A DNA stretch of 64,000 nucleotides from Candidatus Binatia bacterium (GCA_036493895.1 DASXOZ010000041.1:22054-86053), one strand, 5' to 3'; positions 14,984 to 27,485 are shown, counted from the first letter of the stretch. Made by a program: numbers and translations. Notes: generated by a model from the letters alone, not told the origin.

Positions 14984-17134
14984 TCAGCCCACCTCCGCGA
15001 GGTCGAGCAGATCCTTCCAGCGGGAGTCCAGAACCCGGCGAAGCTCGCGGGATTCGGCCTTTTCGAGGCGAGGATCGCCGGAGAGCCACGAAAGCGCCTC
15101 CTGGCGCGCGAGCGTGAGCAACTCACCGTCGCGCACGAGGTTGGCGGCGCGCAGAGCCGGGACTCCGGCCTGCCTCGTGCCGAGATATTCGCCCGGTCCG
15201 CGCAGCTTGAGGTCGGCCTCGGCGATGGCGAAGCCGTCGCCGGTGGACTCCATGACCGTCAGCCTCTCGAAGGATTCGCGGCTCTGCCCGACGTCGGCGA
15301 CCAGGCAGCAGAACGACTCTTCGGTTCCCCGCCCCACCCGCCCGCGGAGCTGGTGGAGCTGGGCCAGCCCGAAGCGCTCGGCATGCTCGACGACCATGAT
15401 CGTCGCGTTGGGGACGTCGATGCCGACCTCGATCACGGTCGTTGCGACCAGCAGCTGCAGCTCACCGGCCTTGAAGCGGCGCATGACTGCGTCTTTCTCT
15501 GCAGCTTTCATGCGACCGTGCAGCAGGCCGACGCGAAAATCGCGAAACGGTCCCTGCTGGAGCTGCTCGGCCGCGCTCGTCGCATCCGCGAGGTCCATCG
15601 TCTCCGATTCCTCGACCAGCGGATAGACCACGTAGCACTGGCGACCCTCGCGCATCGCTGCGGCCATGCGCGTGTGGAGCCGCGCCCTTGCGGACGTGCG
15701 GATCACGCGCGTCGTCACCGGCAGTCGTCCCGGCGGGAGCTCGTCGAGGACGCTGACGTCGAGATCGCCGTACAGCGTCAGCGACAGCGTGCGCGGGATC
15801 GGCGTCGCCGACAGAAGCAGCGTATCGGCGCGTGCCGCCGACGTCCCGTCGGCGCGCGTCGCCGACTGGATCTTCTGGCGCTGCACGACGCCGAAGCGAT
15901 GCTGCTCGTCGACGATCGCAAGACCGAGCCTGGCAAAGCCGGTCGCTTCCTGGATCAGCGCGTGGGTGCCGATCACGAGGCCGGTGTGGCCCGCCGCGAT
16001 CGCTTCGCGTGCCTCGCGCGCCGCAGCAGCCTTCATGCTGCCGGTCAGCAGGCGTACGTCGATGCCTTCGGCATCGGCCCAGCTTTTCATCGTCGCAAAG
16101 TGCTGCTCGGCCAGCAGCTCGGTCGGTGCCATCACGGCCACCTGGTAGCCATCCACGACCGCCTGGAGCGCGGCAGCGAAGGCAACGACAGTCTTGCCGC
16201 TGCCGACGTCACCCTGCACGAGGCGGTTCATCGGCTCGGGTCGGGCCATGTCGGAGGCAATCTCGTGCGTGACCCTTTTCTGCGCGCGCGTGGCCTGGAA
16301 CGGAAGGCGCGCGAAGAACGCCTTCAGCCGGTCGTCGTGGCGCGCGATCGCGACGCCGCTCTGGCGCCGGCGGGCAGCCTTGCGCAGCGACATGCCGATC
16401 TGCAGCGCGAACAGCTCTTCGAAGATCAGGCTTCTGTGTGCCGGGGTGCGCGACTGCGCCAAGGCATCGATGTCGGCGTCGGAGGGAGGCTCGTGCACGT
16501 ACGTCAGCGCCGAAGCGATAGGAAGGAGATCGAGGCGGCCGCGCACTTCTTCGGGCACCGCACTCTGCATCGTCGCGGCGTGCGTATGCGTCACCTGCGC
16601 AACGACGCGGCGCATCGCCGACAGCGGAAGGTCGCCGGGCTTCTGGTAGACGGGCAAGATGCGTGCGATGCTGCGTGCGACCGCGCCCGCCGCGCCGGCG
16701 AGATCGCTTCCGTTTTCCGCGCCTTCCAGCTTGTCGATTTCGGGATGAACGATCTGCAGCCCGCCGCGCGGCGCCGCTTCGACGCGTCCATGCACGAGCC
16801 ACGTCGCGCCGTCCTTCAGGCGATCGCGGAAATAGGCGGTCTGCTGGAACCACAGCAGCTCGGCCCATCCGCTTTCGTCACTGAACAGCGCATGAAGAAT
16901 CGCACCGCGACGTCCCGGGCGGCGGTGCTCGCGCACCGAAGTGATGCGGCCGACGAGCGTCGCGTCACCCCCTGGCGCCGCCTCGCGCAGCGTAGAGATG
17001 CGCCGCCTGTCCTCGTAACGGAACGGAAGGTGGAACAACAGGTCTTCGAACGTGCAAAGGCCCGCCTTCTCGAGCATCTCGCCGCGCCGCGGACCGACGC
17101 CTTTCAGGAATTGAACGGAATCCTCCAGCGCCAC
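14984..17134 (-). CDS. recG: ATP-dependent DNA helicase RecG
   Basis: 716 aa with wedge domain and SF2 helicase motifs (GDVGSGKT, DEQHRFG); GTG start. Confidence 0.9.
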   Translation of the reverse strand: MALEDSVQFLKGVGPRRGEMLEKAGLCTFEDLLFHLPFRYEDRRRISTLREAAPGGDATLVGRITSVREHRRPGRRGAILHALFSDESGWAELLWFQQTAYFRDRLKDGATWLVHGRVEAAPRGGLQIVHPEIDKLEGAENGSDLAGAAGAVARSIARILPVYQKPGDLPLSAMRRVVAQVTHTHAATMQSAVPEEVRGRLDLLPIASALTYVHEPPSDADIDALAQSRTPAHRSLIFEELFALQIGMSLRKAARRRQSGVAIARHDDRLKAFFARLPFQATRAQKRVTHEIASDMARPEPMNRLVQGDVGSGKTVVAFAAALQAVVDGYQVAVMAPTELLAEQHFATMKSWADAEGIDVRLLTGSMKAAAAREAREAIAAGHTGLVIGTHALIQEATGFARLGLAIVDEQHRFGVVQRQKIQSATRADGTSAARADTLLLSATPIPRTLSLTLYGDLDVSVLDELPPGRLPVTTRVIRTSARARLHTRMAAAMREGRQCYVVYPLVEESETMDLADATSAAEQLQQGPFRDFRVGLLHGRMKAAEKDAVMRRFKAGELQLLVATTVIEVGIDVPNATIMVVEHAERFGLAQLHQLRGRVGRGTEESFCCLVADVGQSRESFERLTVMESTGDGFAIAEADLKLRGPGEYLGTRQAGVPALRAANLVRDGELLTLARQEALSWLSGDPRLEKAESRELRRVLDSRWKDLLDLAEVG

Positions 17135-17187: not shown

Positions 17188-18330
17188 CTACCCGACGCGC
17201 GGGGTCGAAGTCGAACCGCTCCCCTGCGTCCGGGCGGCGCTGGTCACGCAGTCTGCTTCAACGGGCAACGCCGGCGTCACGTCGCCTTCGGAAAGGCCGT
17301 CGAGAATGCGATCGAAGAGCCACGGTGACCGGCAGAGCACAGGCATCATCAATCCCGAAAGAGCAGAGCGGCGCAGCGCGAGCAGCGCGCTCGTGCCCCA
17401 CCAATACCGGCGAACCAGGCGCCGCCAATGTCTGTCGTACGCGGCCGCCTCTCCGCGGCGGATCGCCGCCACCGCGGCAATGGCAGAGAGGAACCCGAGC
17501 CGGAGGCCCTCTCCGGTGATCGGGTCGAGATACCCGGCTGCATCGCCGACCAGAAGGACGCGGCCGCAGGCGACGCGCGAGGATCTCTGCTCGAAAGGCC
17601 CGGCTCCGCGCGGCGTCGACGTGGTCTCGGCTCCTTCGAGGCGCGCGCAAAGCTCGGGATAACGGGCAAGGAGCCCCTGCATCGTCACCGCTCCGTTCCT
17701 GCTGCGCTCGTCGAACAGCATCGCAACGCCGACTTCGTCGCCGGCAACCGGTGTCACGTACGCTTCGGACAGCGGGTGCAAGTGCACCTCGACGAAATCG
17801 CTCCACGGCGCAACGCGAAAGTGCTGGCGCAGTCCGAAACGTGGCGACCCGCGCCGCGGCGCCAGCTCGAGCCCGAGCCGGCGGCGCACGACCGAGCGCA
17901 GTCCGTCGCACGCGACGAGGTAGCGGGCCGCGTGCCCGTCTACGATGACACCCTGCTCGTCCTGCACGATCTGGTTCACGCGATGCGCGATCACGCGGAT
18001 TCCGAGCTCGCGCGCACGGCGCATGAGCGCCCCGTGCAGCTCGGTGCGCCGAATTCCCCACCCCGGTCCGCGCGAAAAACGACCGTCCACCCTGCGCTCG
18101 CCTTCGACATAGCGAATTCCGGCGAACTCCCGTTTTCGCGACACGCTGACGCCCGCGCGCAAAAGGGCCTCGACCGCCGCAGGCATCAGCCCTTCACCGC
18201 ACGCCTTGTCGAGAACTCCCGGCCTGGCCTCGAGCACGGCGACGTCGAGCCCCGCGCGCGCCGCTTCGATCGCTGCGTAGAGGCCGACCGGACCGCCGCC
18301 GGCAACCAGCACGTCGCGTCGCTCGGTCAC
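17188..18330 (-). CDS. FAD-dependent oxidoreductase/monooxygenase (geranylgeranyl-reductase-like; FtpE/SrsC-like hydroxylase candidate)
   Basis: GxGxxG FAD motif VLVAGGGPVGLYAA and GD motif VLLVGDAAGY; start overlaps the stop of the upstream FAAL gene by 4 nt. Confidence 0.75.
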   Translation of the reverse strand: MTERRDVLVAGGGPVGLYAAIEAARAGLDVAVLEARPGVLDKACGEGLMPAAVEALLRAGVSVSRKREFAGIRYVEGERRVDGRFSRGPGWGIRRTELHGALMRRARELGIRVIAHRVNQIVQDEQGVIVDGHAARYLVACDGLRSVVRRRLGLELAPRRGSPRFGLRQHFRVAPWSDFVEVHLHPLSEAYVTPVAGDEVGVAMLFDERSRNGAVTMQGLLARYPELCARLEGAETTSTPRGAGPFEQRSSRVACGRVLLVGDAAGYLDPITGEGLRLGFLSAIAAVAAIRRGEAAAYDRHWRRLVRRYWWGTSALLALRRSALSGLMMPVLCRSPWLFDRILDGLSEGDVTPALPVEADCVTSAARTQGSGSTSTPRVG

Positions 18331-20072
18331 GTGTCGTCCTGGCCCGCTCCAAGGCGGCTTCGAACGTAGCCGACCGCGCTGCGCAGCATCGCGCCGCCGA
18401 GAGTTCGCGCGTTGACGGCCGCCGGAGCGCGCAACTCTCCGCTTCTTGCAAGCCGCAAGGTTTCGCCGCGGCGGATTTTTCCGGAAGAAGTGCGCGGCAG
18501 CGTGCCGGGCTCGAGCACGAGCACCTCATCAGGTGAGACCGAGCAGGCCGCCATCACTGCGCGCCGGCACTCCTCGGCCATTCCGTCGCGGGCCTGCCTC
18601 GCTTCGACGAACAGCAGCAGCCTCTCACCGCTCTCGCCGATCTCCGCGACCGCGGCTGCGCACCCGGTACGAACGCCGGGGACCGCGTCGACGGCGCGCT
18701 CGAGATCCTCCGGCGCGAGGTTGTGACCTCGAAGCACCAGCAGGTCCTTCGCACGGCCAGTGACGTAGAGTCGACCGTCGCGCAGGAATCCAAGGTCGCC
18801 GGTGTCGAGCCAGCCTTCGGCGTCGATGGGCGCATCGTCGCGGCCAAAGTAGCCGCTCATTACCGAAGGCCCGCGCACCTGGATGCGGCCGACGCGATTC
18901 TCGCCGACGTGGCCGCCGGCATCGTTGCGGATCCTCACGGCGAAACCCGGCAGCGGCTCGCCGCAGCTCACCCACTCGCTTCCGTCCGGATCCGGCTGCA
19001 CGATACCGAGCGCGATCCTTGCAGTATCGAAACGCTCGCTGCGCCAGCGCGTCCCCGGCCTGGTGAATGTCACCGCCAGCGTGGCTTCGGAAAGTCCGTA
19101 GACCGGCATCAGCGCATCGTCGCGGAATCCCCAGCGCGAAAAACGGCGCTCGAATGCCCGAAGCGTTGCTGCCGCCATCGGCTCTGCGCCGTTCATTGCC
19201 ATCCGCCAGCACGCCAGGTCGCAGCCCTCCAGCTCTTCGTCGCGGATGCGATCGACGCTCAGGCTGTAGGCGAAGTTCGGTGCCGGCGACGTCGTGCCGC
19301 GGTATCTGGAAATCGCGCGCAGCCAGATCGCAGGCCGGGCGAGGAAATGTTCGGGAGGAATCAGCGTCAGCGGGCCGGGCCCGAGCAGTGCCGGCAGCAG
19401 ACAGCCGATCAGCCCCATGTCGTGGTACAGCGGAAGCCAGCTCACGCCGCCCGGATCGTGGCCGAGCTCCGGCGGCAGAAGATGCAGGATCGCGTCGGTG
19501 ATGCGCTGGCCGTTGGCGAGCATCTGCGAGTGGGACAGCGCCACCGGCTTGGGATCGGTCGTGGTTCCCGACGAGAACTGGATCATCGCGATCTGGTCGG
19601 CGCGCGACGGCGCAGCGGCAGCTTCACGGCCGTCGCGAAGCCCGGCCACGCTGCGCACACCGAGACGCGGACGGTAACGGGCCGCGGTCTCCCCGAGGAT
19701 CCGTCCGATGCGCGAATCGGTGTACAGGACGGCCGCACCGGCGGCTTTCAGCATCGCGGAGGTGCGCTCGTGGTACTCGCCGAGGCGACCAAGGCGCAAC
19801 GGCGGATAGAGCGCCACCGGGATCGCGCCGATCCACTGGGCAGCGAAGAACAGCTCGATAAATTCGGGACAGGTCGGAAGCACGATGGCGACGCGCTCGC
19901 CGCGCCGGATGCCGCTGTCGAGCAGGGCCCCGGCCGTGGTCGCGACGCGCCGGCGAAACTGCGCGAACGGCAGCCAGCTGGCTTCCTCGTGCCGGTCGAG
20001 AAACCGGAAACCATAACGGTCGCTGTCGGATCCGGCAGCGGATTCGATGACGTCGGCAAGGGTCACGCTCAT
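18327..20072 (-). CDS. fatty acyl-AMP ligase (FAAL)
   Basis: Adenylate-forming motifs QFSSGTTTDPK and WLPLYHDMGLIG (FAAL-type); ATG at 20072 overlaps the ACP stop (ATGA). Confidence 0.85.
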   Translation of the reverse strand: MSVTLADVIESAAGSDSDRYGFRFLDRHEEASWLPFAQFRRRVATTAGALLDSGIRRGERVAIVLPTCPEFIELFFAAQWIGAIPVALYPPLRLGRLGEYHERTSAMLKAAGAAVLYTDSRIGRILGETAARYRPRLGVRSVAGLRDGREAAAAPSRADQIAMIQFSSGTTTDPKPVALSHSQMLANGQRITDAILHLLPPELGHDPGGVSWLPLYHDMGLIGCLLPALLGPGPLTLIPPEHFLARPAIWLRAISRYRGTTSPAPNFAYSLSVDRIRDEELEGCDLACWRMAMNGAEPMAAATLRAFERRFSRWGFRDDALMPVYGLSEATLAVTFTRPGTRWRSERFDTARIALGIVQPDPDGSEWVSCGEPLPGFAVRIRNDAGGHVGENRVGRIQVRGPSVMSGYFGRDDAPIDAEGWLDTGDLGFLRDGRLYVTGRAKDLLVLRGHNLAPEDLERAVDAVPGVRTGCAAAVAEIGESGERLLLFVEARQARDGMAEECRRAVMAACSVSPDEVLVLEPGTLPRTSSGKIRRGETLRLARSGELRAPAAVNARTLGGAMLRSAVGYVRSRLGAGQDDT

Positions 20073-20308
20073 GCCTGCTCTCCGGTCTTTTCGACGATGC
20101 TGCGCAGCAGGTCATCGAAGTCCCGGATGGATTCTTCGTCTTCCGGCTCGAAGCAGATGTGGAAATGGTCCTCGATCGCGACGACGAGCGACATCCGCTG
20201 CAGGGAATCGAAATGGACGTCGAGACCGCCGTCGGGGACAGTGCCTTGCCAGCGCAGCTCGTCGCGCAGGATTTTCTCGACTTCTTCGCGCACGCGTTCG
20301 GGATTCAC
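20069..20308 (-). CDS. acyl carrier protein
   Basis: 79 aa with a DSL phosphopantetheine-attachment-type motif (VHFDSLQRMSLVVAIEDHF). GTG start at 20308 preceded by GAAGGA RBS. The listed 338-aa ORF upstream of this start is repeat read-through and is rejected. Confidence 0.75.
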   Translation of the reverse strand: MNPERVREEVEKILRDELRWQGTVPDGGLDVHFDSLQRMSLVVAIEDHFHICFEPEDEESIRDFDDLLRSIVEKTGEQA

Positions 20309-20991
20309 GCTGGGGTTTCCTTCTGCGCGGGCCCGAGGCCCGCGTTTGTCTGCGCGGGCCCGAGGCCCGCGTTTGTCTGCGCGGGCCCGAGGCGCGCGTT
20401 TGTTTGCGCAGGCCCTAGGCCTGCGTTTGTTCGCGCGGGCCCGAGGCCCGCGTTCGTTCGCGCGGACTGGCCGCCCGACTCCGGTTCGAGCAGGCGCAGG
20501 GCAGCGTCTTCCGATTTCACGCGAGCGCGAAGCAGCAGCGCGTTGCCGACGGTGAACGCCGCGGCGGTAAGCCACGCGCCTCCGACGGCCGGAAGCGCGA
20601 ACCCTTCGCAGACGACCGCGACGTAGTTCGGGTGTTTCAGCCACCGGTACGGTCCTCGCGCTACGCGGCCGAGGCCCGGCACGACGATGACTCTCGTGTT
20701 CCACTGGCGACCAAGCGTCACGATGCACCACCAGCGAAGAGCCTGGCAGGCCGCAGCGACTGCCAGCGCCACCGGCCACAATACCGGCAACTGTGTACGG
20801 CCGCGCAGCAGCGGCTCGAGCACGCAGCCGGCGAGAAACGCCGAATGAAGAGCGACCATCGCCGGAAAATGACCGCGGCCGACTTCGCGTCCGCCGCGCT
20901 CGAGGCTCCACCTTGCGTTCGAGTTGCTGACCGCGATCTCGATCGCGCGCTCGAGGATCGTCGCGACCAGCAGTGCGTAGTAAAGGCTCAC
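20305..20991 (-). CDS. ICMT/PEMT-family integral-membrane methyltransferase (FtpB/SrsB-like) with a repetitive C-terminal tail
   Basis: Motif RGPYRWLKHPNYVAVVCEGFALP. GTG start overlaps the PKS stop (GTGA). There is no stop codon until 20305, so the frame reads through five 27-nt repeats, giving (A[QR]TNAGLGP)x5. Confidence 0.65.
   Translation of the reverse strand: MSLYYALLVATILERAIEIAVSNSNARWSLERGGREVGRGHFPAMVALHSAFLAGCVLEPLLRGRTQLPVLWPVALAVAAACQALRWWCIVTLGRQWNTRVIVVPGLGRVARGPYRWLKHPNYVAVVCEGFALPAVGGAWLTAAAFTVGNALLLRARVKSEDAALRLLEPESGGQSARTNAGLGPARTNAGLGPAQTNARLGPAQTNAGLGPAQTNAGLGPAQKETPA
20325..20459. repeat. 5 tandem copies of a 27-bp unit (GCGCGGGCCCGAGGCCCGCGTTTGTCT) with a GC-rich palindromic core
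   Basis: Read directly from sequence. Units 3-5 carry substitutions; unit 4 (CAGGCCCTAGGCCTG) keeps the palindrome through paired changes. Confidence 0.9.
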
Positions 20992-22067
20992 CACTGCACC
21001 AGCACGAGCTCGGAGCAAAAGCCCGGTCCAAGCGCGAGCAGCAAGCCGAGGGTATCCGGCTGCGGCCTGGCCTCTTCGATTGCATCGCGAAGGACGAACA
21101 GGACCGAGCTGCTCGACATGTTGCCGACTTCCGCGAGCGATCGCCTCGTCAGCGCGAGCTCGCCGGCGCCGAGACCGAGGCTCTCCTCGAACGCATCGAG
21201 GACCTTGGGGCCGCCGGGATGACAGATCCACGAGCGGATGTCCTGGCGAGCCACACCGTGCTCGTCCAGGAATCCGTGGACGTCGTCGGCAAGGTAGCTG
21301 CGCACGACATCGGGCACCGATGCGGAAAGCACGATGCGGAAGCCTCCGCTCGTGACGTCCCAGCCCATGACGCGCTCGGTATCGGGATAAAAGCGCGACC
21401 GTGACGCGAGCACGCGAGGTCCGCGCGCGCCGAGCCGCTTCGATCTGGCGGAGCCCGCCATCACGACCGCGGCGCCGCCGTCGCCGAACAGGCCGCTGGC
21501 GATGAGGTTCGGGATCGACAGATCGTCGCGCTGCAGGGTAAGCGAGCAGAGCTCGAGCGACACGAGCACCGCGACGTGATCCGGCCACGCCAGCAGGTAG
21601 TCGTGCACGCGGGCGATGCCTGCTGCACCGGCCACGCATCCGAGCCCGAACACGGGAATCCGTTTGACGTCGTTTCTCAGGCCGAGCCGGTTGACGAGCC
21701 TCGCATCGATCGAGGGCACGGCAATCCCCGTCACGCTCGTGAAGAAGATGCAGTCGACGTCGGATGCCGCGACGCCGGCTTCCTCGAGCGCGAGCGCGAG
21801 CGCACGCGCCGCGACGTCCGTGCCGACTCGCACGTAAGCGTCGTTGGCACCGCCGAATCCGTCCAGCGCAGCATAGTCCTCGATCGGCAGCGCCAGGTGG
21901 CGCCCACCCACGCAGACCGAACGGTGCAGGCTGTCGAGGCGCGCGGGGTTGTGGTGCTGTTTCCCCCAGAACAGGCGCAGCGCGTCCAGCAGCTCTTCCT
22001 GGCTGTAGTGGTGGGGCGGATGCGCTCCCGCAACCGAGACAATCGAGCTGTGCCTGCTGTCGTTCAT
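20988..22067 (-). CDS. type III polyketide synthase (chalcone-synthase-like; alkylresorcinol/alkylpyrone synthase type)
   Basis: 359 aa with active-site Cys region GLGCVAGAAG, His CHPGGPKVLD and Asn GNMSSSSVLFVL; ATG at 22067 verified. Confidence 0.9.
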   Translation of the reverse strand: MNDSRHSSIVSVAGAHPPHHYSQEELLDALRLFWGKQHHNPARLDSLHRSVCVGGRHLALPIEDYAALDGFGGANDAYVRVGTDVAARALALALEEAGVAASDVDCIFFTSVTGIAVPSIDARLVNRLGLRNDVKRIPVFGLGCVAGAAGIARVHDYLLAWPDHVAVLVSLELCSLTLQRDDLSIPNLIASGLFGDGGAAVVMAGSARSKRLGARGPRVLASRSRFYPDTERVMGWDVTSGGFRIVLSASVPDVVRSYLADDVHGFLDEHGVARQDIRSWICHPGGPKVLDAFEESLGLGAGELALTRRSLAEVGNMSSSSVLFVLRDAIEEARPQPDTLGLLLALGPGFCSELVLVQW

Positions 22068-22117: not shown

Positions 22118-22948
22118 TCACATCGGCTTTTCGCCGAAGTTGCAGCCCTCGGCCGGGGCAGACGCGGGGCCGGCTGCGCGCCCGAGGTCCGCCAGATCGG
22201 CAGGCCGGGAGCGCGGGACCCAGTACGGAACCCTCGAGCGGTAACGCTCGAAGCGCTCGCCGTAGAGAGCCAGGTAGCGTCGCTCCTTGTGGAGGGGGGC
22301 CAGCACGCAGTATCCCGTCCACGCGACGGCCACGATCAGGTGGTCGAGTGTCCAGACCGGAGCGGTCCACAGTATCAGCGCGAACGCGACATAGACGGGC
22401 TGCCTGACCCAGCGGAAGGTGCCGCGCGGCTCGAAAGCGGAGTAGCGCGGAGTTTTTCCCCGAACGACCGACCCCCAACCGAGATAGCCGGTCTGAACGC
22501 CGAGGCCGGCATCCATCATCGTTCGAAGCAGCAGCAGCCACGAAGCCGCGTAAGCGAGCGACGCGCCCGCAAGCGCGATGCCGCGAGGCGCCATCTGCCA
22601 CGTCGACAACGGGGACCACAACACGAACGTCGCCAGCAACTGCCAGGCCGCGATCGTGGCGAATGTCGTCGTACCCAGAGCTGCGCCGAGGCCGGAAGGC
22701 GCAAGGCGCGCAAGAGCGCGCCGGCCGCCGCGCGACAACAACAGCGAGTGCAGCACGGGGAACTGCACGAGCAGCAGTGCATCGGCGGCGGCGCCAGCGC
22801 TGCCTTGCAACGTGCCGATGCCGACGCGCATGCCGGTGTAGAGCCCGGCAATCATCGACGCGACGGCGGCCGCGAACGACAGGTGGCACGCGATGCCCCA
22901 CGCCAGCGCGACCCGGCGATGCGCGGGCGGCAATGATGTCGTGCTCAC
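22118..22948 (-). CDS. second ICMT/PEMT/NnrU-family membrane methyltransferase-like protein
   Basis: Multiple TM segments plus FRWVRQPVYVAFALILW motif; putative GTG start overlaps the YceI-like stop. The N-terminal extension in the listed ORF is rejected. Confidence 0.55.
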   Translation of the reverse strand: MSTTSLPPAHRRVALAWGIACHLSFAAAVASMIAGLYTGMRVGIGTLQGSAGAAADALLLVQFPVLHSLLLSRGGRRALARLAPSGLGAALGTTTFATIAAWQLLATFVLWSPLSTWQMAPRGIALAGASLAYAASWLLLLRTMMDAGLGVQTGYLGWGSVVRGKTPRYSAFEPRGTFRWVRQPVYVAFALILWTAPVWTLDHLIVAVAWTGYCVLAPLHKERRYLALYGERFERYRSRVPYWVPRSRPADLADLGRAAGPASAPAEGCNFGEKPM

Positions 22949-23661
22949 GAGGGCCGCCTTTGATCGCGCGAGAGCCCAGCGGCCGCGACTGCCGGCCAAG
23001 GCTGCTGCACGGCCGCAACGGCGGTGCTGATCCGCACGTGGCCGGTCACGTGGACGTCGTCCTCGACGCGGATGAGGCCCAGCACCGTCGGTGCTTCGAG
23101 CTGGAAATCCTTCAGAGACAGGTGCGCATCGGCATCGAAGGAAACATTCGGCCCCCTGGACTGCCAGTCGCTCACTGCGACGACCACGTCGCGCGAGACG
23201 CCGGCGATGACCACGACCCCATGGAGTTGTCCCTGCCCCCGCGCTGCGTCGGGATTGACGGCAGGAAACGATACGCGGATCGACGGCGCACGGTCGGCGT
23301 GCAGCATCTCGCGCATCTTTGCGTCGCGAGAGTCGTTGTCGGTGGTCATGCCGGAGACGGGAATGGAGAACTCGACGTCCCACGCACCTGCAGCGGCGGC
23401 CGGGTGCAGTGTCGTGGTCACGCGCGGCGCCTTGCCTTCGAAGTCGTGCAGCGAAGAGCTGCCGGCAAACGTGATGTCGCAGGTTGCCTGCGCAGAGCCG
23501 CTTTCCTGCGGTACTCCTTGTGGGACTCCTTGCGGGGCTTCCTGTGCGACGGAATCGCTGTGCGCACCGGCCGTGACCAGCAGGAGCGTGAGAAGCATCG
23601 CCGCACCGCGTGATGCCGGAACAAGACCTCCACCCATGGCGCATACCGATACGCGCAGCAT
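22945..23661 (-). CDS. YceI-family periplasmic lipid/polyisoprenoid-binding protein
   Basis: Signal peptide (RGAAMLLTLLLVTAGAHS) followed by YceI-like beta-barrel motifs (FAGSSSLHDFEG, TDNDSRDAKMRE). Confidence 0.65.
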   Translation of the reverse strand: MLRVSVCAMGGGLVPASRGAAMLLTLLLVTAGAHSDSVAQEAPQGVPQGVPQESGSAQATCDITFAGSSSLHDFEGKAPRVTTTLHPAAAAGAWDVEFSIPVSGMTTDNDSRDAKMREMLHADRAPSIRVSFPAVNPDAARGQGQLHGVVVIAGVSRDVVVAVSDWQSRGPNVSFDADAHLSLKDFQLEAPTVLGLIRVEDDVHVTGHVRISTAVAAVQQPWPAVAAAGLSRDQRRPS

Positions 23662-25442: not shown

Positions 25443-27485
25443 TCAGCGACCCTGGCTGATTTCCCTTTCGGTCTGGTCGCCCTGCCCTTGCAGATCCTGC
25501 ACCGCAGCGGCCGCGCGGTCGTCGGGCTGAGGGGGCGGGACTTCGCCCTGCGTTACCCCTGCGTCAGGAGCCTGCGGCAGACCCTCGCCGCCGGCAGCGA
25601 GACTCCTCAGCCCGTTGTCGATCTGCTCACGGAATCGGTTGTGCATCTCCTGCAGGTCGGCGACCTGCACGCGCGGCTTGGCGCTTACCGGGCAGTCGCC
25701 CTGCTTGCTCGCAGTGACTCGTACGCCGATCGCATTGTCGTCACCGGGCGTGTCGTCGAGGCGGCCGAGCACGTCCCCGGCTGTGAGCTCGCACTCCTGA
25801 CCGTCGGGAGTCGGCACCGTCAGGCTGTCGGCGACGACGAACACCGAGATCGTCGGATCCAGCACCGGAAGCGCGACGGAGGATGCATCGGGCGGAGGCT
25901 GGTCAGGATACGAGGCAGCTTCGCGCTGCGCCTTCAGGTCGGCTTCGACCTGCGCGGCAATCGCCTGCTTGACCTCCGGGCTGAGTCGAACCGGGCCGCT
26001 CGACGGAGCGGGAGTGGGCTCGGGCTCGGCGGGCTGCGTCGCAGGCGGCGCCTGGTCGTAGCCCGGGGCAGCCGGCTGCTGGTAGTAGTCGGGTGCAGGA
26101 GCCTCAGGCGCATACACTGGCGGCGGTGCATAGGCCGCCTGCGACGCCGCGTACGCGAGCTGCAGGTTGGCCGCGAGCAGGTAGTCGGTCAGCCAGAAAG
26201 CCGCCGACGGATAGTAGGCCTCCGGCGCGAAATACCCTCCGTAGTAGCCGACCCACGGCGAGCCGTACCAACCCCAGTGATAGTAGACGTGCGACGGCCA
26301 CGGATCGCATGCCCATCCGTAGAACCCGGAGTGGTAGTAATGCGCGGGCGCGTAGACGTAGTAGGGATGGTCGTGCCAGACCGACTCGCGATACGCGTAG
26401 GCGTACGTATGCCCGCCGTGCACGTACGTGCGCTGCACGTACTGATGGCCGTGGTTCGTCATGTAATTTCGTTCGGTGAAGCCATGGTCCCTTCCCATGC
26501 TGACGACGCGCTGCCGGCCCGTCGGGTCGCGCCGCTCGACGACGCGATCCTGGGGCTTGAGCCCGCGTCGAACCTCGACGCCGTTCTGGGCGCGGATCTC
26601 TCGAACGCGGCCGCGATTGTCCGATCGTACTTCGTTGCCTTTTACCTGCGCGACCCTGCGCTCGGGCTGGCGGACACGACCCGCGGCCTGGGCGTTGTCG
26701 CGCTCGCCGCGGCGGGTCGGCTCGCCGGGAGTACCGTTTTCCCCGAGATGCTGCCCGCGCTCGCGACCCGTCGGACTCGCGTTGTCGGTGCCACGGTGGC
26801 CGTGCTCGACATCGGCGCCGCGCTCCTGGCCGCGCGCGCCGCGTTCCTGTCCAACGGCCCCGCGCTGTTGGCCCGCACCGCCCTCCTGTCCAACCGCGCC
26901 GCGCTGCTGGCCGTGCGTTGAGCGGTCGTTGTTTCGTCCGCGCTCGTCCTGCAGTTGCTGCGCCTGTCCGCCGTGTTTCTCGCCGCGGTTATCGAATCCC
27001 TGCGCCGCGCCGGCTTCGTGTCCGCCGCGGTCGGCGCCTCCCTGCCCATGCATCTGCTGGCCGTGCTGGCGCTGCTCCGGGAACTGCTGCTGCTGGGGAA
27101 CCGCCTGGCGATGCTCCTGCCGCTGCTCGGGAAACTGCTGCTGCTGCGGATAGGCCTGGCGATGGTCGGGGAACTGCTGAGGGGCGTGCGGCTGGAAAGC
27201 CGGGCGCTCGTGAACCTGGGGCTGCCCTCCGAAGGTCTGCTGGTGCTGGGGCGGGGCCGAGAAACCGCCTCCGCGGGGCGCAGCGGGCGCGGGTTGCCCG
27301 AACTGCGGCGCCTGGTGCTGGCCGCCGCCGCCCCCCCCACCCCCCTGCTGTTTCGGGTGCTCCGGCGCGTTCTGCACCGCTTGCGGGTGCTGTGCGAAGG
27401 CCGCGCAGGGGACCGCCAGCAAGGCGGCGACGGCGGCGATCGACACAAAGGGTCCAAAACAGGCGCGGCGGGTTGATTCCGACAT
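25443..27485 (-). CDS. secreted hypothetical protein, Gln/Gly/Arg-rich low complexity with an aromatic (Tyr/Trp/His)-rich segment
   Basis: ATG at 27485 with GGAGG RBS; signal peptide FGPFVSIAAVAALLAVPCAAFAQ; internal repeats (QQQQFPEQRQ, GQQRGAVGQE); no family recognised. Confidence 0.55.
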   Translation of the reverse strand: MSESTRRACFGPFVSIAAVAALLAVPCAAFAQHPQAVQNAPEHPKQQGGGGGGGGQHQAPQFGQPAPAAPRGGGFSAPPQHQQTFGGQPQVHERPAFQPHAPQQFPDHRQAYPQQQQFPEQRQEHRQAVPQQQQFPEQRQHGQQMHGQGGADRGGHEAGAAQGFDNRGEKHGGQAQQLQDERGRNNDRSTHGQQRGAVGQEGGAGQQRGAVGQERGARGQERGADVEHGHRGTDNASPTGRERGQHLGENGTPGEPTRRGERDNAQAAGRVRQPERRVAQVKGNEVRSDNRGRVREIRAQNGVEVRRGLKPQDRVVERRDPTGRQRVVSMGRDHGFTERNYMTNHGHQYVQRTYVHGGHTYAYAYRESVWHDHPYYVYAPAHYYHSGFYGWACDPWPSHVYYHWGWYGSPWVGYYGGYFAPEAYYPSAAFWLTDYLLAANLQLAYAASQAAYAPPPVYAPEAPAPDYYQQPAAPGYDQAPPATQPAEPEPTPAPSSGPVRLSPEVKQAIAAQVEADLKAQREAASYPDQPPPDASSVALPVLDPTISVFVVADSLTVPTPDGQECELTAGDVLGRLDDTPGDDNAIGVRVTASKQGDCPVSAKPRVQVADLQEMHNRFREQIDNGLRSLAAGGEGLPQAPDAGVTQGEVPPPQPDDRAAAAVQDLQGQGDQTEREISQGR

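Follow-up and report, generated by a model that had tools for sequence, protein, structure and literature searches.

In a 64,000-nucleotide stretch of DNA from a Candidatus Binatia bacterium (GCA_036493895.1 DASXOZ010000041.1:22054-86053, hereafter the window) the gene of an FtpB-like membrane methyltransferase (MT) ends with five head-to-tail units of 27 nt, each built around a GC-rich palindrome, just before the start of an acyl carrier protein (ACP) gene. We conclude that this array is probably a lineage-specific and fast-evolving coding minisatellite, that is a variable-number tandem repeat (VNTR), carried in a non-conserved and disordered tail of the MT. The evidence for this reading comes from the structure and frame of the array, from a second sequence in which the number of units differs, and from homologues in which no comparable array was found.

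Structure and reading frame of the array

The five units occupy positions 20326-20460 of the minus strand (Table 1). Tandem Repeats Finder reported a single array at this place (20322-20465, period 27, 5.3 copies, 90% matches) with a score of 218, the highest in the window, and a separate repeat search returned the identical unit register. Each unit consists of an A-rich 8-nt spacer followed by a 19-nt hairpin, CGCGGGCC-TCG-GGCCCGCG, with a stem of 8 bp and a loop of 3 nt. The predicted energy of the hairpin is -16.6 kcal/mol for U1, U4 and U5, -15.1 kcal/mol for U2 and -9.5 kcal/mol for U3, which contains a C.C mismatch. When up to three mismatches were allowed, the 17-nt core had 13 matches in the window against a mean of 3.35 after shuffling (0 of 100 shuffles reached 13), and all matches with 0 or 1 mismatch were inside the array. 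The 211-nt array region also folded more stably than 200 out of 200 shuffles on both strands, with z-scores of -4.0 and -4.2. The repeat finder, the comparison of the units and the folding thus confirmed the five tandem hairpin units at the 3' end of the MT gene that an earlier note on this DNA had described, the intact units folding at -15.1 to -16.6 kcal/mol on the mRNA strand. The same note took each unit to be able to form a hairpin; a correction is needed for U3, whose stem has an uncompensated mismatch that is non-synonymous (Gly>Arg).

As also noted earlier, the MT frame remains open through the repeats down to position 20305 and the array is in frame. Since this frame contains no earlier stop, the repeats are necessarily translated if the MT is. 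The array encodes the peptide (R/Q)TNA(G/R)LGPA x5, and the C-terminus of the MT reads ...LRLLEPESGGQSA-(RTNAGLGPA)(RTNAGLGPA)(QTNARLGPA)(QTNAGLGPA)(QTNAGLGPA)-QKETPA*, the residues before the array being ...GGQSA. The suggestion that the array is open in all frames had to be dropped, because the CTAG of U2 places a TAG in one of the frames of each strand. The overlap between the MT stop and the ACP start, GTGA (4 nt, 20308-20305), is as it had been read before, with AAGGAA as the Shine-Dalgarno (SD)-like element, and the stop of the upstream polyketide synthase (PKS) gene overlaps the MT start in the same way, also as GTGA. From this arrangement the ACP appears to be translationally coupled to the MT. 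In the protein, the core spans residues 1 to ~168 and the C-terminal tail (~170-228) contains the repeats. AlphaFold2 modelled the core (residues 1-168) with confidence and gave the tail pLDDT values of 37-52 without secondary structure; the tail is predicted to be disordered.

Copy number of the array in two metagenome assemblies

The MT is identical to HEY2774399.1, encoded on a 138-kb contig of a Candidatus Binatia metagenome-assembled genome (MAG). Its 90% cluster contains one other member, P0121 (238 aa), which is encoded on a 21-kb JGI contig, L001. This contig and the window, both of which are short-read metagenome assemblies, were aligned over window positions 24630-10305 (14.3 kb). 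Within the ~14.2 kb flanking the array we found one substitution only, at window position 16327 in recG (17134..14984, minus strand), and because of this single difference the alignment places the window and L001 in the same strain-level population. The array itself showed a length difference of 27 nt together with five mismatched columns. The order of the units is A-B-C-D-D in the window (5 units) and A-B-B'-B'-C-D' in L001 (6 units); compared with the window, L001 carries two extra copies of hairpin B plus CAAACAAAC, one D unit fewer and one ACA>GCA substitution. At least three events (at least two expansions or contractions and one substitution) therefore separate the two arrays, against one in 14.2 kb of flank. 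The array is hypervariable in this comparison of two assemblies that may not be independent. The longest exact internal repeats measure 45 nt in the window and 63 nt in L001, and assembly with a k of at least 65 can resolve both.

The array lengthens the MT by 45 residues in the window and by 54 in L001. The frame is kept in the two alleles, whose adjoining flanks are identical and which share the GTGA junction. The comparison of related genomes for repeat number that had been proposed earlier thus revealed a difference, six units against five, so that the description of the locus as phase or length variable stands for length. It does not stand for phase: because the unit is nine codons long, changes in copy number alter the length of the tail only, and since the 5- and 6-unit alleles keep the frame and the same stop/start overlap we rejected phase variation. 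In all, the array displays the features of a coding VNTR, namely a tandem unit of at least 10 nt, a unit length that is a multiple of 3 with the frame kept, and a difference in copy number.

The array in homologous operons

A protein search of 5.8 billion clusters, which include the proteome of the source MAG, returned 5,082 MT homologues, and lengths and coverage were taken from the 120 best of them. With the exception of the query's own cluster, these 120 proteins are 167-217 aa long and cover 65-82% of the query, which corresponds to the core. In the alignment, the close homologues (57-71% identity) stop 10-15 residues past the conserved ...E(N/D)xAL...L motif. Removal of the 45 repeat residues leaves an MT of 183 aa, a normal size among the homologues. 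The orthologous operons L002/L003/L004, L005 and L006 encode an MT that is 66-71% identical and keep the gene order, and their MT and ACP genes overlap by 4 or 23 nt. In L002, L005 and L006 the segment from the MT core to the ribosome-binding site of the ACP showed neither repeat nor hairpin, and none of 80 further homologous metagenome loci had a comparable tandem array at the MT 3' end. Single hairpins of -14 to -20 kcal/mol were present in the last ~150 nt of GC-rich MT genes in 34 of 82 loci. Because comparable hairpins are this frequent in related loci, a lone hairpin is unremarkable, and it is the tandem array that is the unusual feature. As far as these sequence comparisons go, the array is unique to this lineage.

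In one homologue, of another lineage, a different insertion occupies the corresponding point of the MT tail. This protein, P0003 (JGI sample 3300050046, 1.1-kb contig, known from the protein alone), is 71% identical in the MT core and carries ~40 Ala/Pro-rich residues with a period of 9 aa, equivalent to 27 nt (AAAAVAPAA / AAAAVAPAA / EAAAVEGEI). The insertion may be an expansion that arose independently at this MT/ACP junction.

Constraint, composition and origin of the units

Between them, the six unit types differ at eight sites. Five of these are third positions of codons in the MT frame (hypergeometric p=0.052), and three changes, R/Q, T/A and G/R, are non-synonymous. Unit B (U2) departs from the consensus by a G>A and a C>T at paired stem positions and by a C>A in the loop, all three at synonymous third positions. 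Since the pairing in this unit is between third positions, the signals of synonymy and of pairing are confounded. The paired substitution that the earlier note had attributed to its "unit 4", which is our U2, is thus real and located at pairing positions. Its interpretation as a signature of selection on structure is weakened, for the compensated stem change represents one event, later amplified in L001, and template switching could account for it. By a rough hand estimate, the chance of obtaining the compensated pair by independent mutation is ~3%. Paired changes in the arms of a palindrome are expected from quasipalindrome template-switch mutagenesis (PMC7202029), and because such mutation yields the same pattern the compensated pair alone is no proof of selection on RNA structure. 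Unit C (U3), with its uncompensated and non-synonymous stem mismatch (Gly>Arg), is kept in both genomes.

The GC content of the array is 0.70-0.78 at all codon positions and in all frames, which makes codon-position GC uninformative as a guide to the coding frame. At second codon positions the value is 0.71, against 0.30-0.55 in the neighbouring genes, and because it lies so far above them the array looks unlike evolved coding sequence in its composition.

We also compared the unit with its surroundings. The 27 nt directly upstream of U1 on the mRNA (20487-20461) agree with U1, in register, at 16 of their 27 positions, a level reached by 0.16% of the other 27-mers of the window, which suggests that this segment is either a decayed terminal unit or the native source of the unit. 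A local alignment scan of the array flanks gave no significant resemblance to the unit. The possibility that the unit stems from the ACP gene's 5' end, with which it shares CGAACGCG...GCGCGAA, was rejected because the flank ranked 180th out of 6,378 windows and was not beyond chance. From these sequence comparisons, local birth of the array is favoured over the insertion of a foreign element.

Search for dispersed copies and regulatory signals

Outside the array, the window contains only chance-level matches to the core with 2-3 mismatches and no other repeat family. The unit translated in six frames (a 162-aa query) recovered only the query's own cluster from the protein clusters described above. 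In a collection with one genome per species, the matches listed for the 19-nt core were single copies, in GC-rich taxa that are unrelated and include many Acidimicrobiales, the source MAG not being among them. A 22-nt unit query gave 0 matches in a metagenome collection from which the L001 contig is evidently absent and which is therefore silent on other alleles. The proposal of a family similar to repetitive extragenic palindromic (REP) elements accordingly lost ground, with no further copies in the window, no other protein carrying the unit in any of the six frames and a 19-nt core that is single-copy among the matches listed.

The exact 19-nt hairpin CGCGGGCCTCGGGCCCGCG is present in single copy in many Acidimicrobiales/Acidimicrobiaceae MAGs (loci L007-L086, among the matches listed). 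A hairpin conserved at one locus of that order, perhaps a terminator, is suggested by these matches; it is unrelated to the Binatia array.

No Rfam family reached its threshold at the array (the best scores were 17-23 bits, where 50-80 would be required). Neither strand yielded a terminator-like call at the array, and the mRNA hairpin is followed by CAGACAAAC and not by a U-tract. The units are directly adjacent and the 8-nt "spacer" is itself conserved, unlike the arrangement in a CRISPR array. On these grounds (no U-tract, adjacent units and sub-threshold scores) the terminator, CRISPR and Rfam RNA readings were all rejected. Partition functions were then calculated for constructs in which the array had 0, 1, 5 or 6 units. 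Across these constructs the ACP SD was unpaired with a probability of 0.67-0.71 and the GUG with one of 0.32-0.34; opening energies were 11.6-15.6 kcal/mol and showed no trend to occlusion with the number of units. Sequestration of the ribosome-binding site by the array was thus not seen in silico.

Proposed origin of the array and alternative explanations

We propose that the array was born locally and that it would expand and contract through slippage in replication or through unequal recombination among its units, which the hairpin-forming units would probably favour. Only whole-unit alleles would survive or occur. Because 27 nt equals nine codons, whole units would keep the MT in frame and coupled to the ACP, and for the same reason the array would be tolerated. 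The geometry of the operon may in this way act as a filter: as the MT stop overlaps the ACP start (GTGA), only length changes in multiples of three preserve the coupling and leave the MT ending at the ACP start. The added peptide would be a harmless floppy tail, and the hairpins would mainly be a mutational property of the DNA that is carried into the mRNA and melted by translating ribosomes, with no evolved regulatory device. The array is probably near-neutral. Two observations made elsewhere are relevant here. Insertion with minimal impact on expression is considered likely for a mycobacterial interspersed repetitive unit (MIRU) whose open reading frame (ORF) is coupled at -4 nt (PMC12548453), and in-frame fusions of repeat elements that lengthen the 3' ends of genes are known (PMC3184786).

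If this proposal is correct, the locus would be a natural example of hairpin repeats that expand in a compact operon only when the frame and the stop/start coupling are respected, following the same logic as MIRUs, here at one locus and in a phylum without cultured members. It would also provide a good strain marker for this Binatia population, and the annotated 228-aa MT would be better read as a ~183-aa enzyme with a variable tail. Greater importance would follow only if copy number were shown to tune the expression of the polyketide operon.

Several points weigh against a near-neutral VNTR. The two assemblies might go back to identical or related raw data, in which case part of the 5-versus-6 difference could reflect the choice of the assembler in a heterogeneous population. 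The insertion with a 9-aa period in P0003 may mean that the site is favoured for a reason and is not merely tolerant. The five third-position sites out of eight, together with the single compensated stem change, hint at a constraint on the peptide or on the hairpin. Finally, as to the origin of the first unit, the 16/27 match is suggestive at most and the alignment scan of the flanks was non-significant.

We weighed this proposal against four others which are, in decreasing order of plausibility, a functional element acting on mRNA stability or coupling, a protein linker under selection, an insertion of REP-like type and an artefact of assembly. As a functional mRNA element, the array would be a barrier to 3'->5' exonucleases, a processing site or a means to tighten the dependence of ACP translation on that of the MT, and would set the stoichiometry between PKS-MT and ACP-fatty acyl-AMP ligase (FAAL)-oxidoreductase with copy number as a rheostat. 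We consider this unlikely. It is true that the hairpins are stable on the mRNA strand (-15 to -16.6 kcal/mol, z-score of -4.0 over 211 nt), that the end of the last one is located 15 nt upstream of the ACP GTG, inside the ribosome standby region, and that one stem substitution is compensated and the stems are less variable than the spacers. Intercistronic REP hairpins offer a precedent, according to references given in PMC3184786, and RNA structure affects translational coupling (PMC12548453). However, the hairpins are within a translated ORF, where ribosomes should melt them, they have neither a U-tract on the mRNA strand nor a terminator call nor an Rfam match, one unit retains an uncompensated mismatch in both genomes, and similar single hairpins are found near the MT 3' ends of 34 of the 82 loci of GC-rich relatives. 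The tuning of the MT/ACP stoichiometry by mRNA structure, one of the possibilities raised in the earlier note, is further weakened by the closest orthologues (67-72% identity), which have neither the 45-aa tail nor a hairpin at the site, and by the predicted SD/GUG accessibility, which is the same with 0, 1, 5 and 6 units. Less probable still is an evolvable rheostat in which the number of hairpins shortly before the ACP ribosome-binding site, changed by slippage, tunes the stability of mRNA segments or how tightly ACP translation is coupled to that of the MT, and hence the stoichiometry of enzyme and carrier, strain by strain; were it true, it would be an alkylresorcinol/alkylquinone pathway that is tuned, and the 9-aa-period insertion of P0003 would be convergent. 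A role of the repeat at the protein level is about as improbable as the rheostat. The (Q/R)TNAGLGPA repeat would then be a selected flexible linker or docking tail, for example to the ACP, the PKS or the membrane surface, which would agree with the array being in frame in both genomes, with the synonymous third positions at five of eight variable sites and with the extended low-complexity tails that P0003 and several actinobacterial homologues have at the same position. Against it, the tail is missing from essentially all homologues including the closest, it is predicted to be disordered with very low model confidence, its second-position GC of 0.71 looks non-coding, and near-identical strains differ in the number of copies as well as in residues (Gly>Arg, Thr>Ala, Arg/Gln).

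The array might be the remnant of a mobile palindrome similar to REP elements or to MITEs (miniature inverted-repeat transposable elements) that was inserted into the MT/ACP junction and subsequently multiplied in tandem. The unit is indeed palindromic, rich in GC and of a size like that of REP elements, fusions of repeats in frame to gene 3' ends have been documented (PMC3184786), MIRUs insert at start codons with a -4 coupling (PMC12548453), and the DNA-level scan of the source genome covered the 64-kb window only. We judge it very unlikely nevertheless, as no second copy was found in these 64 kb beyond chance at up to three mismatches, no translated copy in any frame among the 5.8e9 protein clusters and no multi-copy genome among the 19-mer matches listed, and as the resemblance of the upstream flank to a degenerate unit favours a local origin. 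The least probable explanation, and one to which we give very little credence, is an expansion, collapse or chimera of the repeat during short-read metagenome assembly. Both sequences are metagenome assemblies, a single short read has about the length of their arrays (135 and 162 nt), and it is exactly at the array that they disagree. This has to be set against two assemblies with whole in-frame units and identical flanks, and against unit variants that can be told apart, the exact repeats of 45 and 63 nt being resolved by k-mers of at least 65. An artefact would at most explain the exact count and not the existence of the repeat.

Comparison with known repeat systems

By analogy, the closest known system is that of the MIRU-type VNTRs. 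Like the array, they consist of tandem units located in operons between co-oriented genes, the end of their ORF overlaps the downstream start by 4 nt with coupling kept, their copy number varies between strains and they contain GC-rich internal inverted repeats (PMC12548453; PMC3184786). The 4-nt overlap of a repeat ORF with the downstream start is present here as the GTGA at 20308-20305. MIRUs differ in being 40-100 bp long, in occupying ~40-50 loci per genome and in having their own small ORF, whereas the Binatia unit is 27 bp long, is fused to the upstream MT ORF and is known from one locus, no dispersal having been found within the window or in the six-frame protein search. Bacterial coding minisatellites resemble the array in their head-to-tail units of a multiple of three, their conserved frame, their variation between strains and their location in low-complexity or disordered segments. 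The array departs from typical coding VNTRs, which are found in surface or secreted proteins, by its near-perfect GC palindrome, by a composition unlike that of coding DNA and by its place at an operon junction with a stop/start overlap.

REP elements and bacterial interspersed mosaic elements (BIMEs) are likewise short, GC-rich and imperfect palindromes that can form tandem clusters and lie between operon genes (PMC3184786), and they can stabilise upstream mRNA (PMC3184786). With a 19-nt hairpin in a 27-nt unit, the array falls in their size class (imperfect GC-rich palindromes of ~21-65 bp). REP elements are extragenic and dispersed in tens to hundreds of copies, whereas the array is inside a translated ORF, at a single locus in the 64 kb, and no family was found for it. 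Rickettsia palindromic elements provide a case of palindromic repeat DNA that is tolerated in an ORF and translated as extra peptide (PMC3184786); these are single insertions of ~100-150 bp spread over many genes, in contrast to the 27-bp tandem units at one site described here.

The host operon and neighbouring genes

Judging from Pfam matches and synteny, the array is hosted by an ftp/srs-type operon on the minus strand, which encodes a type III PKS, the MT, the ACP, a FAAL-type enzyme and a flavin adenine dinucleotide (FAD) oxidoreductase (Table 1). Its gene content is like that of the ftp/srs operons of Myxococcus xanthus (FtpA-E) and Streptomyces griseus (SrsABC) as described in PMC10896814, and the same source, citing Hayashi et al. 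2011, gives alkylresorcinol and alkylquinone lipids as the products of SrsA or FtpA in such operons. These relatives differ from the Binatia operon in that the repeat tail is found in none of ~5,000 homologous methyltransferases. A 79-aa gene is present at the position of the ACP in the orthologous operons L001, L002, L003, L004 and L005.

Table 1 Features of the repeat array and of its host operon, in the order of transcription (unit sequences are given in mRNA sense).
Feature	Position in window	Strand	Sequence or evidence	Remarks
Type III polyketide synthase (PKS)	20988..22049	minus	Pfam Chal_sti_synt_C/N, FAE1_CUT1_RppA, ACP_syn_III_C	Upstream of MT
ICMT-family (FtpB/SrsB-like) membrane methyltransferase (MT)	20305..20991	minus	PF04140, E=1.5e-22, residues 77-165	228 aa
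Putative degenerate sixth unit or proto-unit	20461..20487	minus	GAACCGGAGTCGGGCGGCCAGTCCGCG	Encodes EPESGGQSA
U1	20460-20434	minus	CGAACGAACGCGGGCCTCGGGCCCGCG = CGA ACG AAC GCG GGC CTC GGG CCC GCG	
U2	20433-20407	minus	CGA ACA AAC GCA GGC CTA GGG CCT GCG	Stem GCAGGCC/GGCCTGC
U3	20406-20380	minus	CAA ACA AAC GCG CGC CTC GGG CCC GCG	GCGCGCC, one uncompensated stem mismatch
U4	20379-20353	minus	CAG ACA AAC GCG GGC CTC GGG CCC GCG	
U5	20352-20326	minus	CAG ACA AAC GCG GGC CTC GGG CCC GCG	Identical to U4
MT/ACP junction	20305..20322	minus	SD-like AAGGAA 20322-20317	ACP GTG 20308-20306, MT TGA 20307-20305
Acyl carrier protein (ACP)	20069..20308	minus	Weak PP-binding match, E=0.0015; DSL motif	79 aa
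Fatty acyl-AMP ligase-type adenylating enzyme	18327..20072	minus	Pfam AMP-binding, E=2.7e-56; synteny	581 aa
FAD-dependent oxidoreductase	17188..18330	minus	Pfam FAD_binding_3, E=5.2e-22; synteny	380 aa, last operon gene

Immediately upstream of the PKS gene, positions 22118-23661 of the minus strand contain a YceI-family gene and a gene for a 276-aa membrane protein without recorded Pfam match. Both are common to L001 (1033-2513), L002 and L003 carrying other genes upstream, and they may be members of the lipid-quinone operon. The other notable tandem arrays of the window (26815-26912 and 27066-27178, with periods of 21 nt x4.8 and 51 nt x2) belong to a single gene (25443-27485, minus strand) whose 680-aa product has what looks like a signal peptide, and long low-complexity repeats rich in Q, G and R such as QQQFPEQRQ and QQRGAVGQE(R/G)GA.

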